A stretch of DNA of 48,944 bases, the filler included, from an uncultured virus (IMG/VR IMGVR_UViG_2049941000_000076) (lineage: Duplodnaviria; Heunggongvirae; Uroviricota; Caudoviricetes). It is 9 parts of one record of this genome, joined end to end, with 100 filler letters (N's around TTAATTAATTAA, not from the genome) between each part and the next. Parts side by side here need not be neighbours in the genome. Positions count along the whole stretch, not along the records: positions 14,803 to 19,060 come from IMGVR_UViG_2049941000_000076; 8 more parts are not named here. One strand, 5' to 3'. A model generated the notes under the pieces. The model searched no databases. It saw only the letters and a program-made list of their open reading frames with translations, and was not told the DNA's origin. Within the stretch, counting starts at the first letter, position 1; each line of letters begins with the position of its first letter. The translations under genes and the position numbers were made by a program. Positions 6,656-42,600 of the stretch are shown piece after piece.

Positions 6656-7557
6656 GTACGACTTATACAAATTTTCTGCATCTTGGCTTGCAGGAAAACA
6701 AAAATGATAAGCTGGACTGGGATTTGGTGGTTGAAAACTGGAAAACTATTGACGGAGCTGTGCAGAACCGGCAGACGTTTGACATTACCACAACACTTGA
6801 AGCTTCGGCAAGCAATGAAATCGACGCTGACCATATAACGACGGTTGGCAGCTATCAGTTTTCAAGCGATGCAATCCAATATATTTCGCATCTTCCTACA
6901 GGGCTATATTCTGATTCACGGCTTGATGTTATTAAGCTTCCTTCTGATAGACGTCAGCAGACCATTCGCCCTATCGGGGCTACACCCGTCATTTATGTGC
7001 GTAACAGCACTTCCGGAACTACTCCGTATGAAGGGTCGTTAATCCCCGCGATGACATCAGCGACAACGCCTAGCGGTGAAGTGATTGAATCCGGGCATTA
7101 CGATAACAGATACGGCTATCAGGCTTTTGATGGTGTAGATAGTCAGACATGGATGTCACATTCATGGGGCGATGGAACAAATGAGCTTGACGGCGATCCC
7201 GATACCTGCTTTGTCGGCTATATATGGGATAATCCGCAGGTCGTTTCGTCTGTAAAGATTTCGTTTTCTGCTGATACGGCATACACTGGCTGCATACAGT
7301 GCAAAGTAAATGATGTGTGGCAAACAGTTATATCAAGTATCACAATCGCAGACACTGGATACACAGTTGTAGAGCAATCGCTTGTATCGCCTGTTGAATG
7401 CACAGCAATCAGATTCTGCGTTCTTTCAGGAGATCAAGACAGGTTCTGTTCAAGCAACTATGGCGGCAATGTCTGCGAAATGATTGTATACGGCACGGGC
7501 GGATTGACAGCAACATGGGGCGACTGGTACAGCGTCGGAATGTCTGTAGTGCAATAA
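6652..7557 (+). CDS. Putative tail fibre/receptor-binding protein with a discoidin (F5/8 type C)-like C-terminal domain
   Basis: N-terminal TNFLHL..NWKTID motif. C-terminal IPAMTS..PSG..YQAFDG..W..IRF..EMIVYG pattern. Last gene of the tail module. Confidence 0.6.
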   Translation: MSTTYTNFLHLGLQENKNDKLDWDLVVENWKTIDGAVQNRQTFDITTTLEASASNEIDADHITTVGSYQFSSDAIQYISHLPTGLYSDSRLDVIKLPSDRRQQTIRPIGATPVIYVRNSTSGTTPYEGSLIPAMTSATTPSGEVIESGHYDNRYGYQAFDGVDSQTWMSHSWGDGTNELDGDPDTCFVGYIWDNPQVVSSVKISFSADTAYTGCIQCKVNDVWQTVISSITIADTGYTVVEQSLVSPVECTAIRFCVLSGDQDRFCSSNYGGNVCEMIVYGTGGLTATWGDWYSVGMSVVQ

Positions 7558-14702: not shown

Positions 14703-14937
14703 NNNNNNNNNNNNNNNNNNNNNNNNNNNNNNNNNNNNNNNNNNNNTTAATTAATTAANNNNNNNNNNNNNNNNNNNNNNNNNNNNNNNNNNNNNNNNNN
14801 NNCAGTCTCACCATAAATTGAGCTTTGCCGCTACACAGTCACACTCGCCCGCCTGCTGACTATAATAAAGGAGTGTGGTGATATGACACGAAATGAAATC
14901 AACGAACTGATTATAGAGCTACTGGAAATAATCGGTG

Positions 14938-15476: not shown

Positions 15477-15746
15477 GTGATTGATAGAAACCTACTCAGA
15501 AGCGCGATTGCACGCGCAGGCATGACACAAGAGAAACTTGCAGAAGCTATTGGGATTTCAAGCAATACGCTGTCTGCAAAGATTCTCGGACGTTCTTTCT
15601 TTGACACACAGGAAATCGACATTATCTGCGAGGTGCTTTCTATCGAGGACAACAACGAGAAAGCCAATATTTTTTTAGCGCCTGCATCCCGTTTTCGGGA
15701 TGATAAAAGAAAGGAGAATGCAAGTGAACGAGTTGAAACTGTTTGA
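15477..15746 (+). CDS. Cro-like XRE regulator
   Basis: GMTQEKLAEAIGISSNTLSAK HTH. GGAGGTG SD. Confidence 0.88.
   Translation: MIDRNLLRSAIARAGMTQEKLAEAIGISSNTLSAKILGRSFFDTQEIDIICEVLSIEDNNEKANIFLAPASRFRDDKRKENASERVETV
15685..15702. promoter_or_regulatory. Perfect operator palindrome inside the 3' end of cro
   Basis: CATCCCG-TTTT-CGGGATG. Confidence 0.7.
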
Positions 15747-16411
15747 ACAGATTGACATTCCTGCTATTCGTGAGTATGAAAAGTCAAAAAAGAAGTATGA
15801 CGGATATGTGTATGCTGTTGAGGTCGGTGAAAAAGTGAAAATCGGAAGTACAACAGCACCGGCACAAAGAATCAGATCACTGTCTACAATGTTTTCCAAT
15901 TACGCAATGGAGAAGATTGGAAGAATCGCTATCTCCCGTCCGCACATGAACTTCCGGCAGAATGAGATTATTCTCCATTCTGTTTTTGAATCGAATAGAA
16001 TCAAATCCGGCGAAATGTTCTCAATCAAATTTGAAGATGCTGTGTCGGAAATGAAAAATCTCCTTTTTGATGTTTCTGACAAGCAACGAGAATTAAGGGA
16101 AGCGCAAGCCAATGAAACGGTTGAGATGCTCAAACGAGTCGTTCTAGGAGAGACTCAGCCAATAAAAAACATTGATACGAATAAACATCAGAAATTCAGA
16201 TGGAATGCTCTTGTTTATGAGCAACCATGTGAAGATGCGGCTGCATTTCTTCTCCAAATTGCGCTTGTCGGACTTGTTCTTGACGATAGCCAAAAAGAGA
16301 AAGTTATTGACATGGCGATAGATATTAGCAAATACAAAATTTCAAATATGTCGCTCACCGTAACTTTTGATTGTTCTGGAACGAATTCGGAAAATGAAGA
16401 ACCTGACGAGG
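15724..16411 (+). CDS. GIY-YIG/T5orf172-domain protein, antirepressor-like position (3' truncated)
   Basis: GYVYAVE....KIGST..P.QR motif. AAGGAG SD plus GTG giving MNELKLFE. Confidence 0.65.
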
Positions 16412-16564
16412 NNNNNNNNNNTGAAGAAGAACAGCAGAAATGTGAACGCAGAGCGCGGCAGCTTGCAAGGCGCATGATGCGGGAATCGCTTAAAGACGTT
16501 AAGATCACGGTTACACAGCGCGTGTCCGTGGTCGAGGATGACTTAGGAAAGGAGTGCAAGTGAG

Positions 16565-16757
16565 ATGGCGAATATATACGATACAGCAATCACAGTGTAT
16601 CGCGGCGTGAACCACAATCCGGACGGCACTGTTGTTCCGTTTTCGTTCTGCACAGCGTTTTTTGACGCCGATGATGATGTGTACGGCTGCGGCGGCGAGT
16701 ATCTCATTGCAGCAGATGAGGACGGCAATCTGATTCCGGTCGGAACTGTCGGCAATG
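16565..16757 (+). CDS. Hypothetical protein (3' truncated)
   Basis: AAGGAG SD and ATG. Ends at a gap. Confidence 0.5.
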
Positions 16758-16767
16758 NNNNNNNNNN

Positions 16768-17160
16768 GCAAAATTCGGTTTCCCGGCTGTTGCGATCAAG
16801 AAAGCTGCGGTTTCTGCCGCATATCGTCAGGGCATCACGAAAGACAAGGTTTCCGCAAACGGTTCATTCTGGCTGAATGGCGTGAATGATGCAGAGTTTG
16901 TGGAGATTGAAAGCGATGAACCGCCTGTTATGCGCGAAGATATGGTGAAGATCGGCATGGGAACGGCTGATATTCGGTATCGCGGAGAGTTCCGCAACTG
17001 GAAATGCAGGTGCAGAATTTCCTATTTGAAAGACGGTGTATTCAGCCTTGAAAACATCGTTTCGATGATTAACCTCGGCGGATTCTGCTGCGGTCTGGGC
17101 GAATGGCGCGTTGAAAAAGGCGGCATCAGCGGCAACTTCCATGTTGCGACTGAAAAGTAA
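16768..17160 (+). CDS. Solitary RAMP/Cas7-like protein (Vipr-like), C-terminal 130 aa (5' part lost in gap)
   Basis: Open from the contig edge: AKFGFPAVAIKKAAVSAAYR (equivalent to the RAMP 'P.SS.KG.LR' helix) ... MREDMVKIGMGTADIRYRGEF..W ... GGFCCGLGEWRVEKGGISGNFHV (C-terminal Gly-rich loop G.G..R....G.F typical of RAMPs). Confidence 0.75.
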   Translation, partial: AKFGFPAVAIKKAAVSAAYRQGITKDKVSANGSFWLNGVNDAEFVEIESDEPPVMREDMVKIGMGTADIRYRGEFRNWKCRCRISYLKDGVFSLENIVSMINLGGFCCGLGEWRVEKGGISGNFHVATEK

Positions 17161-17167
17161 TAGAAAA

Positions 17168-17592
17168 GTCAAGGCAGTTAAGTCAAGGCGAGTTTCGATA
17201 GGTTGTGGTTGGCATCAGCAGTTGAGGAAAGGCTTATTCTGTCGGGGTTAGTTTGTGTATGGTCTGGCAGTTCCGGTAAGTATAGGCTACTTGTGGTAGA
17301 TTCTGGCATGGAATGTTCCGGCAAGGCGACGTAAGGCAGTCTCGGAGTGTTGCGCTGTGGTCTGTTGCGTTATGTAGCGGATTGGCAGTCGAGTTGTGAC
17401 AAGGTGAGTTCTTGCATGGTGCGCAAGGATAGTTATGGCAGTTTTGGCTAGTTTTGTATAGTTAAGTTGTTGCTTGTTCGGCTGTGGCAGCCGTGGCAAG
17501 TAGAGGATGGCTTGTTCAGTCGATGAACGGTTTTGTCCGGCAGTCTAGTCAAGCTGTGTTAAGCCTAGCAAGGGATTGCTTAGTTATGTCCT
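17168..17592 (+). ncRNA. Array of eight GGCA-delimited units of 5-nt periodic G-N-H-N-N pentamers (putative guide-RNA array, vrRNA-like)
   Basis: Units start at 17173, 17217 (AGCA), 17266, 17335, 17384, 17437, 17486 and 17539, each with 8-13 pentamers. By hand count 67 of 76 full pentamers begin with G and none has G at position 3. No plus-strand ORF. Strongly G/T-skewed. Confidence 0.85.
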
Positions 17593-17618
17593 ACAAAAAC
17601 GAAAACAGGAGGTTGTGA

Positions 17619-17707
17619 ATGATCTATCAATGAAAAGCGGCAGCAGAATCAAAGCTAACGCACAGGCAAGCGGGGAGCTTATGGAAAAGCTCTCCGCATC
17701 GGAAGAA
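17619..17707 (+). CDS. Array-associated partner protein, N-terminal fragment (C-terminus probably 19161-19420)
   Basis: AGGAGG SD at 17607 and ATG 17619 give MIYQ*, overlapping ATG 17630 MKSGSRIKANAQASGELMEKLSASEE. Confidence 0.6.
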
Positions 17708-17778
17708 NNNNNNNNNNGATAATGCTGACGATTATCCGAATTATTGTGCCATGATGCTTGCGGAAAGGAGAATGAGCA

Positions 17779-17901
17779 TTGAACGGTGATTTTATCGTTG
17801 GAAGCATTGGTGGGATGCTTCTCGGCTGCATTTTGGGTGCGATCACGGTTGCAATAGCAATCATCGCGGCGAAATCCGACAACAACAACGACAGGCGGTG
17901 A
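17779..17901 (+). CDS. Small single-pass membrane protein
   Basis: AAGGAG SD, TTG start, MNGDFIVGSIGGMLLGCILGAITVAIAIIAAKSD... Confidence 0.55.
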   Translation: MNGDFIVGSIGGMLLGCILGAITVAIAIIAAKSDNNNDRR

Positions 17902-18172
17902 CGGCATGCGGTTTTATGACGATGACGAGGAACTCACGGACGAGGAACGTCACGAACGCAAAATGAATGATTTGGCGTGCCTATGGGATGACAGCGACGA
18001 TCATCATTTGCCGAAAAGTCATCGAAATGATGATTAAGGCATAAAAAAAGCCGCATCCGGTGAAAGCCGGACACGGTGTAAAGGGATTGAGCAACAAAAA
18101 GGAGATATTAAGGATGTAAGATGTGGTGAATGACCCATACTCCTATTATACCAGATTGGAGGTAAAAAGTCA

Positions 18173-18451
18173 ATGGAAAAATACGAAAAAGAGCCAATTA
18201 CAAACGATCTCATTCGTGAGATTGTGGAGCTGACGAAAAGCACAATCGGAACTACAAAACGATACAGCATTGAGTGCAGCATCGGGCAATCTTTTGCATT
18301 CAAATCGCCGCGAGTAATCGTAACTGTATATGATATGCTGGAAATGCGGTGCAACGTCGTATTTATGGCAATGTGCTATGAGTCAGAAAATCTCACAGAA
18401 GCGATCGACAAAGTGAGGGAATTCCTCGCAAAGGACGGTGAATCTGAATGA
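18173..18451 (+). CDS. Hypothetical protein
   Basis: GGAGGT SD. ATGA-coupled to the next ORF. Confidence 0.65.
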   Translation: MEKYEKEPITNDLIREIVELTKSTIGTTKRYSIECSIGQSFAFKSPRVIVTVYDMLEMRCNVVFMAMCYESENLTEAIDKVREFLAKDGESE

Positions 18452-18575
18452 GGTATCAAGTTTTCAGTATCGATGAAAACGGCAATGAAACGCTGTACTG
18501 CGAATGCGATGACACGTTGGAAGCTGCACTTGCAGCAATGGAAATCAATGGAAAGGTGAAAGGAGAACCTGTAGA

Positions 18576-19059
18576 ATGACACTGTATGAAATGTCCTCTG
18601 CCGCACATCAGCTTTATGATCTGCTTGAAAGTGGCGAGATTGACGAACAGACCGTGCTTGACACGATGGAAAGCATCGGAGCAAGCGAAAAACTGGAAAG
18701 CTATATTCATGTGCAGCGGCAGCTTGAAAGCGAAATCGCCGGGTTTGAAGCTGAGATTAAGCGGATGCAGGAGCGCAAGGCTGTGCTTGAAAACCATGTA
18801 AAGCGGCTGAAACAGGCGCAAGTCGAATTCATGCAGGCGACGAACCAGAAGAAAGCAACTGCGGGAACATTCACGCTGACAATGCGTGAAAACAAGTCAT
18901 GTGAGATTGAAGATGAAGCCTTGATACCGCTTGAATTCATGGTAGAGATTCCGGCGAGTTTCAGACCTGACAAAAAAGCAATGTTGGCGGCAATGAAGAA
19001 CGGCGAGAAGATCAGCGGAGCAAAGCTGAATGTGAGCTATAGTGTAACTAAGGAATCCC
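18576..19059 (+). CDS. Siphovirus Gp157-family protein
   Basis: MTLYEM..D.QTVLDTMESI..K.ESY..coiled coil..IP.EF..PDKKAM...K.GEKISGA pattern. Confidence 0.85.
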
Positions 19060-19160
19060 TNNNNNNNNNNNNNNNNNNNNNNNNNNNNNNNNNNNNNNNN
19101 NNNNTTAATTAATTAANNNNNNNNNNNNNNNNNNNNNNNNNNNNNNNNNNNNNNNNNNNN

Positions 19161-19416
19161 GGCATTTTCTCAGGTGCATTCTGGCTGTAGAAATTCAGCA
19201 GGAAGAACAAAGTGAAGAACCGAAAGAATCGCTGAGAGCGTTTTTCGTCACGACTGAACCGACAAAGTATGAGCCGATCGGAGTGATTGTCCAGCAGCAG
19301 AGCAAATATGAAAAGATGCTTGACACGGCACTCAAAGAGTTGATTTCATTCAAGCAAAAATATCAATCGCTGAAAGAATTACAGCCGGTATTCGATGCGA
19401 TGAAAGGTGTGAAAGT

Positions 19417-19420
<4 letters not shown>
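19161..19420 (+). CDS. C-terminal fragment, probably of the array-associated partner protein
   Basis: HFLRCILAVE..SLRAFF..KMLDTALKELISFKQKYQSLKELQPVFDAM*, ATGA-coupled to Sak. Read from the sequence. Confidence 0.6.
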
Positions 19421-21664: not shown

Positions 21665-21765
21665 NNNNNNNNNNNNNNNNNNNNNNNNNNNNNNNNNNNN
21701 NNNNNNNNTTAATTAATTAANNNNNNNNNNNNNNNNNNNNNNNNNNNNNNNNNNNNNNNNNNNNT

Positions 21766-26285: not shown

Positions 26286-27071
26286 AACACTTCGGAGATA
26301 TAACAAAGATTTCCGGCAGAGATGCTCCGGCAGTGAATGTGATTATCGGCGGCAGTCCGTGTCAGGATTTGTCAGTTGCCGGGGAAAGGNNNNNNNNNNC
26401 GCGCTTGTCGCAGATTTTGCAGGGGGGGCAGCTCCGGAAATATTATTTGAGCGCGAAAGCGTGTCAGGGAATTCTGAACAGAGCGAAGCGGCGCGGAAAG
26501 GAACTGCCGGAAATGCTACGGATTGCACTGGAACAGCAAGCGAACCAATAATACTTGAAAGCAATCAAAACCATGCGACAATAACAGATACAGGCGTATC
26601 GCCTACTCTATCCGCTTCAATGGGAATGTGTGGCGGCTATGTTCCGATGATTACAGGTTACGTGAAAGATGAACAGACCGGAATGCTGTCAACGGTGAAT
26701 AATCAGGCGGTGTGTTACGGCATATGTTCCGATAAATCAAANNNNNNNNNNGCTTGCAAGGCTATCCGGACGGCTGGACTGATATTGGCGAATGGACTGA
26801 CACGAAAGGCAAGAAGCACAAACCGGCTGATTCTCCGCGATACAAAGCACTCGGAAACAGCATTGCAATCCCGCCGTGGTTGTGGGTGCTGTCTCGGCTG
26901 AACGAGTATTGCGAAGAAAAGACAATGGCAAGTCTCTTCGATGGGATAGGCGGTTTTCCGCTGATATGGGAATTCCTGAACGGCACCGGTTCTGCGGTAT
27001 GGTGCAGCGAGATTGAGGAATTCCCTATTGCGGTGACAAAATTGCGGTTTCCGGATAATGACGAAAGGTAG
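26282..27071 (+). CDS. C5-cytosine DNA methyltransferase, circularly permuted (gapped)
   Basis: Starts GDITKI..GGSPCQD (motifs III-IV). The last fragment has LQGYPD and YKALGNS (IX-X) followed by SLFDGIGGF and SEIEEF (motifs I-II). Confidence 0.88.
26402..26551 (+). CDS. Nested overlapping ORF in the methyltransferase gene (EcoHK31I beta-like), C-terminal part
   Basis: The +1 frame reads RLSQIL..KYYLSAKACQGILNRAKRRGKELPEMLRIALE while the main frame reads ALVADFAGGAAPEILFE. Confidence 0.6.
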   Translation, partial: RLSQILQGGQLRKYYLSAKACQGILNRAKRRGKELPEMLRIALEQQANQ

Positions 27072-35744: not shown

Positions 35745-36224
35745 TCGCTGTTTTCGCGGATTTCGTAGGCGATGCCGTCCGGCGTTGCCTGCTCTGCCGT
35801 TTCACCGTCCGCCGCTTCTGCGGGTTCGGTTTCGGGCTGCTCCGGTTCTTCCGGTAGATTCATAAGGGCTTCTGCGGTCTGGTTGATGTGGCACATGTGC
35901 ATTTTGCCGTCAAGCGTCAAGCCGAGATTGCAGGACATTTCCCAGTCCCAGCCGATTTCCTGTGCCCACTTCACGACCTCCGGCGACAGTCTGCCGTCGT
36001 GCTCGTGAGCATTGACAGCCGATGCGATAATCACGCAGGCAGCTTCTTTGCCGATTGCCTGCACGATTTCCCGCGATGCCTGTTCCGGTGTGCCGCCGCC
36101 GAAACGGTGCTTCTGTACGATCTCACACAGCGTTTCCGCGTCCTGTGCGATCTGTGCGCGGTATCCTCTCCATGCGGTGAGGTTGTCCGCGTAGGTCTGC
36201 TTCATGTATTCACGGTTCATCATG
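35745..36224 (-). CDS. DUF3849-like protein (3' truncated)
   Basis: GGGAGGG SD. IIASAV....DGRLS....WA..H..HI motif resembling DUF3849 of mobile elements. Confidence 0.5.
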
Positions 36225-36414
36225 GTGATTCCCTCCCTGCTTTCGCCTGTTCTGATTTGGATTGATTCAATCCGGCTTGATTCAGCCCGATCTTTTCCGG
36301 CACATTGTACGCGGTGCCGGTACGCTGGTTTCGGTCTGCACTCTTGTGTAGTGCCTCGGTGTGTTAGGTGCTCCGCTCGTGAAACTGTACGCGGTTCACG
36401 GCTCCGCTTGCGGA

Positions 36415-42526: not shown

Positions 42527-42600
42527 CCTCAATTAGCTCAATCGGTTAGAGCAACTGTCTTATATACAGCGGGTTCTGGGTTCGATCCCTAGATTGAGGA
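42527..42600 (+). tRNA. tRNA-Ile (anticodon UAU)
   Basis: Cloverleaf: acceptor CCTCAAT/ATTGAGG, D stem GCTC/GAGC, anticodon loop CT-TAT-AT (42559-42565), T arm CTGGG-TTCGATC-CCTAG, discriminator A. CCA is not encoded. Confidence 0.88.

Follow-up and report, generated by a model that had tools for sequence, protein, structure and literature searches.

A probable VIPR locus with GGCA-punctuated guide units in the early operon of an uncultured gut phage

Systems of the kind named VIPR, for Viral Interference Programmable Repeat, were first described in 2026, and experimental work on them has so far concerned enterobacterial and Pseudomonas systems. The discovery preprint (10.64898/2026.04.26.720920) reports seven types and 667 systems, with alternative pentamers as well as staggered and ribozyme arrays. 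For the Vipr protein of Escherichia phage SUSP1, which represents type II, cryo-electron microscopy showed one protomer on each guide pentamer, with the GGY triplet held and the dinucleotide (NN) exposed, and assigned the contacts with the GGY bases to H17, R138, C173, D177, W178 and R179 (10.64898/2026.04.26.720927). Targeting of rival vipr genes, comparable to what is seen below, has been described for SUSP1-family phages (10.64898/2026.10.15.759431), and a language-model survey found 99 period-5 VIPR-like clusters, 21 of them non-canonical, together with VIPR-like arrays in which one triplet position is degenerate (10.64898/2026.10.21.760802). In the present study, we describe a locus at 16768-17707 of a 48,944-nt stretch of DNA (‘the window’) from an uncultured caudovirus (IMGVR_UViG_2049941000_000076), in which a vipr gene, an array of pentamers and a partner gene follow one another. 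We consider it to be a VIPR system with a probability of about 0.88.

The 3' part of the vipr gene, the whole array and the start of the partner gene lie on a single N-free piece (16768-17707) with a 10-N gap at each end. The open reading frame (ORF) at 16768-17160 on the plus strand reads KFGFPAVAIKKAA...GGFCCGLGEWRVEKGGISGNFHVATEK and comprises 130 codons (129 residues typed, P0001) followed by a TAA stop at 17158-17160; the first ~98 codons fall outside the window. It includes helix-1 FGFPAVAIKKAA, the thumb hairpin MREDMVKIGMGTADIRYRGEF and the G-loop GGFCCGLGEWRVEKGG, and also contains GGFCCGLGEWRVEKGGISGNF. As reference we used G001, a contiguous IMG/VR virus record of 53.5 kb and 97% completeness in which all sampled words of the window (100%) are present and which holds the vipr gene whole. 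The missing 5' end was thereby recovered, and the complete gene was also found on contigs of the sequencing runs X1 and X2 and of run X5. The full-length protein in G001 (P0124) has 228 aa, and full-length homologues of 215-226 aa start with MATKK...IVGDTPLIVHAWSEKAK. An ORF at 16565-16757 was rejected as the Vipr N-terminus: it does not align with the full-length homologues and is a separate 91-aa gene in G001.

When the window fragment was compared with all sequences in the PDB using phmmer, the sole match was the SUSP1 Vipr protein (36pp_D, E 0.0016), and a profile built from 25 sequences retrieved the same chain at E 8e-8, with the runner-up at E 0.59. The link to VIPR, which an earlier reading of the sequence alone had drawn, is thus borne out. 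The HMMER alignment places the six SUSP1 contact residues on P0124 as H17 to H33, R138 to R170, C173 to C206, D177 to E210, W178 to W211 and R179 to R212, where the N-terminal stretch holding H17/H33 contributes just 1.9 bits by itself. Of these six, R170, C206, E210 and R212 do not vary among 26 aligned family members, while H33 and W211 are each kept in at least 90% of them. An AlphaFold2 model (pLDDT 84.3, pTM 0.80) revealed a beta-alpha-beta core, a C-terminal glycine-rich loop and, at lower confidence, a beta-hairpin thumb at residues ~152-173. The protein is accordingly a minimal repeat-associated mysterious protein (RAMP) with a single RNA recognition motif (RRM), thumb and glycine-rich loop, homologous to the Viprs already described; the sequence-only reading had likewise seen a RAMP-like protein with such a loop, in an ORF that ends at 17160.

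All 13 Foldseek matches of this model at E<=0.001 were Csm3, type VII Cas7 or Cas7-11 chains. The fold alone would therefore also suit a miniature derivative of CRISPR-Cas, in which a solitary Cas7 works with a conventional CRISPR RNA from a repeat-spacer array. At the sequence level, no Cas7 was matched, and searches of Pfam, NCBIfam and PADLOC gave no match for the protein and no Cas family; in PHROGs it matched phrog_4652, whose function is unknown. Cas1 and Cas2 families had no match in the 97%-complete G001, and none of the CRISPR repeat families of Rfam was found in the window, in agreement with the first inspection of the DNA, which had seen neither cas1/cas2 nor a canonical CRISPR array. 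With no repeat-spacer array and no cas genes as in a type III-like system, and with viral neighbours (cI/cro, Gp157, Sak, NinB and SSB genes), we regard a CRISPR-Cas derivative as hardly credible. Compared with the Csm3, Cmr4 and Cas7 backbones of types III, VII and III-E, the protein shares the fold only: it has no second RRM or further elaborations, its step would be 5 nt instead of 6 nt, and it is found without partner Cas proteins and with a guide that has no repeat-derived handle.

Directly downstream of vipr, the DNA is organized in pentamers. Base autocorrelation in this tract was 0.36 at lag 5, 0.38 at lag 10 and 0.35 at lag 15, compared with 0.19-0.29 at the other lags up to 17, and was 0.32 and 0.34 at lags 19 and 20. 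In a Fourier scan of the window at period 5, the tract ranked first with scanning sizes of both 75 and 100 nt. To delimit it, we used a hidden Markov model (HMM) with six states (five pentamer positions and background), for which a GGY prior served as seed; its training set consisted solely of 80 related IMG/VR loci and excluded the window. The trained emissions were G.95 at the first position, G.80/T.15 at the second and C.53/T.42 (Y.95) at the third, followed by two variable positions. Applied to both strands of all 48,944 bases, the model called a single segment, 17176-17590 on the plus strand (415 nt), and it called none in five mononucleotide shuffles. A looser setting moved the start to 17166, 6 nt past the vipr stop, so that the initial description of a 425-bp array beginning seven nucleotides after the gene was about right. 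Other period-5 Fourier peaks lie at 36136-36380, 26476-26590 and 2756-2860; the HMM calls no GGYNN array at any of these, on either strand.

The vrRNA array as a whole (17166-17590, plus strand) holds ~84 pentamers of the form G-(G/T)-Y-N-N, arranged as eight full units after a short leading piece (17166-17176). Its emissions were G.88, G.45/T.43 and Y.85 at the triplet positions, and the tract is G/T-rich and C-poor. All units are on the plus strand. Unit 1 (17177-17220) has 8 pentamers and ends in AGCA, whereas the unit ends after it are GGCA: units 2 (17221-17269), 4 (17339-17387) and 6 (17441-17489) each consist of 9 pentamers and GGCA, and unit 3 (17270-17338), the longest guide, of 13 pentamers and GGCA. 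Units 5 (17388-17440) and 7 (17490-17542) are both 53 nt long, with one internal register slip and a GGCA end. Unit 8 (17543 to ~17590) has 9 pentamers without a terminal GGCA and continues into the leader of the next gene. Each 4-nt unit end shifts the phase by -1, and two further slips occur inside units; the periodicity is therefore not strict, contrary to what had been stated from the first inspection. The tract nevertheless has the anatomy of a VIPR array, i.e., tandem pentamers beside vipr with a conserved triplet and a hypervariable dinucleotide, at 8-13 pentamers per unit. No Rfam family matched it, and its predicted RNA fold was no more stable than that of shuffled sequences (z -0.31).

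The same three-part arrangement was found in relatives of the phage. A pattern search of IMG/VR gave 525 matches, 503 of which were confirmed as relatives, and the counts below refer to the best 80 of these 503; in a protein collection, 1,468 of 1,482 candidates were relatives at E<=0.001. Mean period-5 power was 0.65-0.93 elsewhere in the 80 loci and rose to 2.97, 3.81 and 2.66 over the 300 nt past the gene end. The HMM found an array in 78 of the 80 loci, with a start 4-34 nt after the stop codon in 76. The exceptions are L068, which ends at the gene, L077, which has no array, and L037 and L071, where the array starts at +131 and -60, respectively. In 76/80 loci, the array is succeeded by a homologue of the partner gene that has the same orientation; the misses are three loci truncated <=335 nt from the gene, and L077. 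Among 518 phase-coherent units from 82 sources (the window and G001 being duplicates among them), lengths of 9, 10 and 11 pentamers were the commonest (128, 94 and 68 units); 353 units end in GGCA and 353 start with GGC.

Relatives also occur outside the gut phages. A tblastn search of GenBank phages with the vipr fragment retrieved 30 records, 25 from Mycobacterium and 5 from Gordonia phages, and all three actinophage loci that were opened carry a GGYNN array beside the vipr homologue. These arrays lie at L001 3277-3589 in Gordonia phage UmaThurman, at L002 3292-3451 in Gordonia phage ODay and at L003 2210-2556 in Mycobacterium phage Donkeykong, where the array precedes the gene instead of following it. 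Two of the arrays carry a protein-coding annotation, as the ‘hypothetical protein’ gp40 of UmaThurman and gp48 of Donkeykong, which is probably a mis-annotation. An array adjacent to the gene is hence a feature of the family.

Sequence comparison demonstrated that the array diverges much faster than the genes on either side. Between G001 and L006, DNA identity was 76.7% for vipr and 69.7% for the partner gene, and 44.8% for the array, compared with 44.1% for a shuffled array. The contig of run X5, which comes from another study and links the array to a complete vipr gene at 95-99% identity, differs from the reference (L005, i.e., G001:C1:4000-19000) by 9 substitutions in the ~430-nt array (6770-7200) and by 3 in the 687-nt vipr gene. 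By our own mapping of positions, some of the changes in the X5 array return the consensus G or Y where the window copy is degenerate.

To test the published targeting rule in this clade, a set of 346 unique guides, each with 8 or more pentamers, was compared, at skips of 0-3 nt between dinucleotides, with 0.99 Mb of array-masked sequence, for which the window, G001 and the 80 loci were taken on both strands. The numbers of guides with an NN match of at least 90% at skips of 0, 1, 2 and 3 nt were 0, 5, 0 and 0, and guides with shuffled NN order gave 1, 1 and 2 such matches at skip 1. All five matches lie inside vipr ORFs of other loci, and the guides concerned match their own locus at only 64-79%. 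In 3 of 4 plus-strand matches the NN bases fall on codon positions 1-2. Three of the top matches (two of the five at >=90% and one at 88%) share the thumb-coding stretch EDMV(K/R)(I/V)GMGTA. The guides at L024 3180-3243, L070 3245-3303, L023 3149-3217, L011 3184-3242 and L058 3190-3258 reach 88-96% in vipr genes from other loci with a skip of 1. Guides of the relatives of the window phage thus prefer a skip of 1 and have predicted targets in rival vipr genes.

These observations bear on another explanation of the periodic tract, namely that it is a cis-regulatory DNA element or leader, for instance a set of pentamer iterons or a translational or transcriptional spacer, and no guide RNA, with the RAMP-like protein employed otherwise. 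Such an element would fit the position of the tract inside an operon, where a scan for promoters and terminators around the locus gave counts not above those of shuffles, and the fact that none of the runs with this DNA is on record as RNA. What speaks against it is the homology of the protein to one that was solved with GGY/NN RNA, and the pattern of change, in which the triplet stays fixed from one relative to the next and the dinucleotide is hypervariable. Moreover, an iteron model does not predict that the dinucleotides of relatives match codon positions 1-2 of rival vipr genes at a skip of 1 only. We therefore consider a cis-acting element very improbable, and guide units within a VIPR system remain our interpretation of the array.

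For the guides of the window itself, the corresponding searches gave little. Against the 80 related loci, the window and G001, their best matches were 13-19 of 16-26 bases, which is background, and no skip-1 self-target was present in G001. Unit 3 was also used to scan IMG/VR in halves of 8 NN, which returned 6 and 15 matches, the best full-length match being 23/26 (L104). This match lies in frame in an Enc34-type single-stranded DNA-binding protein (SSB) gene (PF10991) of the phage G002, which has 59% GC. By our estimate p is ~0.05 after multiple testing, and the match is a lead only, which we do not count as a target; no other window guide matched G002 above background. The last 9 NN of unit 3 had 65 matches in GTDB genomes, of which 58 lie at the C-terminal motif VSLIIPK(D/E)(K/N) of long ORFs from gut Clostridia. 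The five target ORFs read are ABC-transporter (ATP-binding cassette) ATPases, and the one that was tested carries ABC_tran and TOBE_2 domains. As these matches are orthologues, they amount to about one event; the best full-length match was 23/26 and extension upstream did not go beyond chance, and the transporter motif was rejected as a target of unit 3. None of five of the matched GTDB genomes contained a related prophage, and a relaxed unit 3 pattern had 0 matches in JGI metagenomes. Units 2, 4, 6 and 8 had 2, 4, 4 and 17 exact matches in IMG/VR, mostly with in-frame stops and mixed GC, as chance would give.

The gene after the array is the third part of the cassette. A Shine-Dalgarno sequence, AGGAGG, was read directly at 17607-17612 on the plus strand, and the gene starts at 17619; such a site and a following gene had also been noted in the sequence-only reading. 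Its 5' part (17619-17707, plus strand) belongs to a candidate vap, the term used for VIPR accessory genes (vap1-6), of which vap1 enhances silencing and some are predicted to bind DNA (10.64898/2026.04.26.720920). According to the blastn map onto G001, the 3' part lies at 19161-19420 (plus strand), displaced by the scaffold order, and the 115 nt between the two parts are outside the window. The whole gene in G001 (ORF L005:6278-6742, minus strand) encodes 154 aa (P0123) and belongs to phrog_15946. One nucleotide of G001 is deleted from the window copy at 17633, which turns TGG into TGA and creates a stop after MIYQ (codon 4); an overlapping ATG at 17630 (ATGA) reopens the frame for the same protein. 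Strain variation or faulty assembly may account for the deletion. A further difference between the window and G001 is A/G at 17657.

Several results weigh against assigning a working VIPR system to this DNA. The second pentamer position is G in just 45% of the window repeats (.80 in the family), while the corresponding G in SUSP1 makes specific contacts; the array has no ~40-nt conserved 3' tail as in type II vrRNAs; the guides of the window are without a convincing target, and scans of the sequence collections were at chance level or marginal. Furthermore, the first codons of the partner gene are disrupted in the window copy, which is not the case in G001, searches of named families and solved folds detected nothing similar to the partner protein, and, as mentioned above, the runs that contain this DNA include none recorded as RNA. 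The relaxed second G, the two units with internal slips, the missing targets and the deletion at the partner start could together reflect a decaying or inactive VIPR remnant, with a drifted array that carries GTY for GGY and no longer loads Vipr or finds targets. On the other hand, the vipr gene of G001 is intact and has lost none of the contact residues, G1 (.88) and Y3 (.85) are strongly retained, and unit sizes and GGCA punctuation are regular. GTY pentamers are numerous (by reading, uncounted) in the two closest relatives as well, L006 and L007, which suggests a variant of the sub-clade and not decay, and degeneracy at one triplet position is known from VIPR-like arrays (10.64898/2026.10.21.760802). 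A missing database target would be expected if the rival element is unsampled. Decay is accordingly an unlikely explanation, and we favor an intact VIPR system.

The locus resembles type II of SUSP1 in several respects. Both have a single-RRM RAMP of ~200-230 aa with thumb, G-loop and GGY-contact residues, guides made of GGY/NN pentamers (9-16 repeats per guide), and a two-gene phage locus with non-coding RNAs and without cas genes or CRISPR array. Skip-1 predicted targets that include rival vipr genes are shared as well, in this case by the relatives of the window phage. The differences are also clear. The protein similarity is remote and mainly located in the thumb and G-loop half (profile E 8e-8). 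All guides lie between vipr and the partner gene, arranged head to tail with 4-nt GGCA between them, and the ~40-nt pseudoknotted 3' tail of SUSP1 is absent. The 154-aa partner has no demonstrated relation to vap1, and the phages are of a gut Clostridia type with relatives among actinophages, in contrast to the enterobacterial host of SUSP1.

Since the discovery preprint describes tail-less staggered arrays and ribozyme-separated arrays in other types, the absence of an invariant structured 3' tail after the repeats counts against type II and not against VIPR. Apart from the type II tail, the locus has the defining features of VIPR in its protein, its array and its viral context, and is already of a known kind. 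The junction GGCA|G fits the ‘staggered vrRNA arrays’ named in the legend of fig. S18 of that preprint, as the last G of GGCAG is the first G of the next unit. Judged by this legend, the GGCA-punctuated units probably correspond to the staggered arrays of the preprint. The text of the preprint, figures and data tables aside, contains no mention of GGCA, Gp157, DUF4494, recombination, rumen or gut, and the text of its PDF supplement none of Bacillota, Firmicutes, Clostridi-, Mycobacteri-, Gordonia or Actinomycet-, and no table of taxa and types. It is conceivable, albeit doubtful, that the clade is a VIPR architecture uncharacterised in print, in which GGCA register-break (protein-ruler) punctuation replaces the tail or ribozyme, phrog_15946 is a new accessory family, the leading guide in several relatives is directed at the rival vipr thumb motif EDMVKIGMGTA, and the window sub-clade tolerates T at the second G. 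The novelty would lie in the register-break punctuation, in phrog_15946 as partner and in the relaxation at the second G, and holds only if the published types do not cover it.

From the homology with SUSP1 VIPR, we hypothesize the following mode of action. The array would be transcribed together with the early operon and processed, and Vipr protomers would polymerise on the RNA, one per pentamer, to form a ribonucleoprotein. Each protomer would bury G1, G2 (G or T here) and Y3 by means of the beta-sheet His, the thumb Arg and the G-loop C-G-x-G-E-W-R, so that the dinucleotide remains exposed. With its 9-13 exposed dinucleotides, a unit would then read double-stranded DNA, passing over one base from each dinucleotide to the next, and the complex, sitting on its target, would block transcription of a competing mobile element. 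From the anatomy of the array, we propose that the terminal 4-nt GGCA breaks the 5-nt register, so that the filament could not enter the next unit and guides would be delimited without a structured 3' tail. The system probably silences rival mobile elements.

The order of pieces in the window differs from that in G001, as seen in the blastn map. In G001, the piece 17718-19049, with small genes and Gp157, is followed by 325 nt with the vipr 5' end, then by 16768-17707, 115 nt, and 19161 onward; compared with L005, the window interval 16422-19160 is short of 264, 325 and 115 nt at three junctions. Because of these differences, several ORFs read over the 10-N gaps are chimeric, such as the 287-aa ORF at 15700-16563. 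Contigs of runs X1 and X2, both from one sample that is possibly the source of this DNA, cover L005:6200-8500 with 0 differences. A recurrent arrangement of 12 bases between two blocks of 44 N (e.g., 14703-14802, 19061-19160 and 21665-21764) resembles scaffold linkers; the window is therefore a stitched pseudomolecule in which adjacency over these points is not reliable.

In the order of G001, a divergent cI-like repressor and a cro-like helix-turn-helix gene are followed by a T5orf172/MUG113 protein, small ORFs, Gp157 (160 aa), vipr, array, partner, Sak, NinB/Orf and SSB. The genes from Gp157 to SSB share one strand and form part of the early region, which lies downstream of the cI/cro switch. 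The placement of the locus between gp157 and sak, proposed in the sequence-only reading, is correct in this contiguous record. The Gp157-family gene (18576-19049, plus strand; PF05565, E 4e-38) is directly upstream of vipr in G001 and provides context outside the system. The T5orf172/MUG113-domain protein (window 15700-16411, plus strand; 243 aa in G001) comes directly after the cro-like gene and heads the VIPR-bearing early operon. A tRNA gene at 42527-42600 on the plus strand (RF00005, 60.9 bits) is the sole Rfam match at gathering threshold in the window. The host of the locus is a temperate-type, siphovirus-like phage from the bovine gut.

The same machinery recurs as a conserved cassette of vipr, array and 154-aa gene within the recombination module of phages from gut and rumen, and extends to phages of Gordonia and Mycobacterium. 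In a compact array without tails, the boundaries of guides are legible in the DNA, and the calling and reprogramming of guides would be simple if the GGCA rule is true. As with the two actinophage arrays above, public phage annotations probably conceal further vrRNA arrays under the name of hypothetical proteins.

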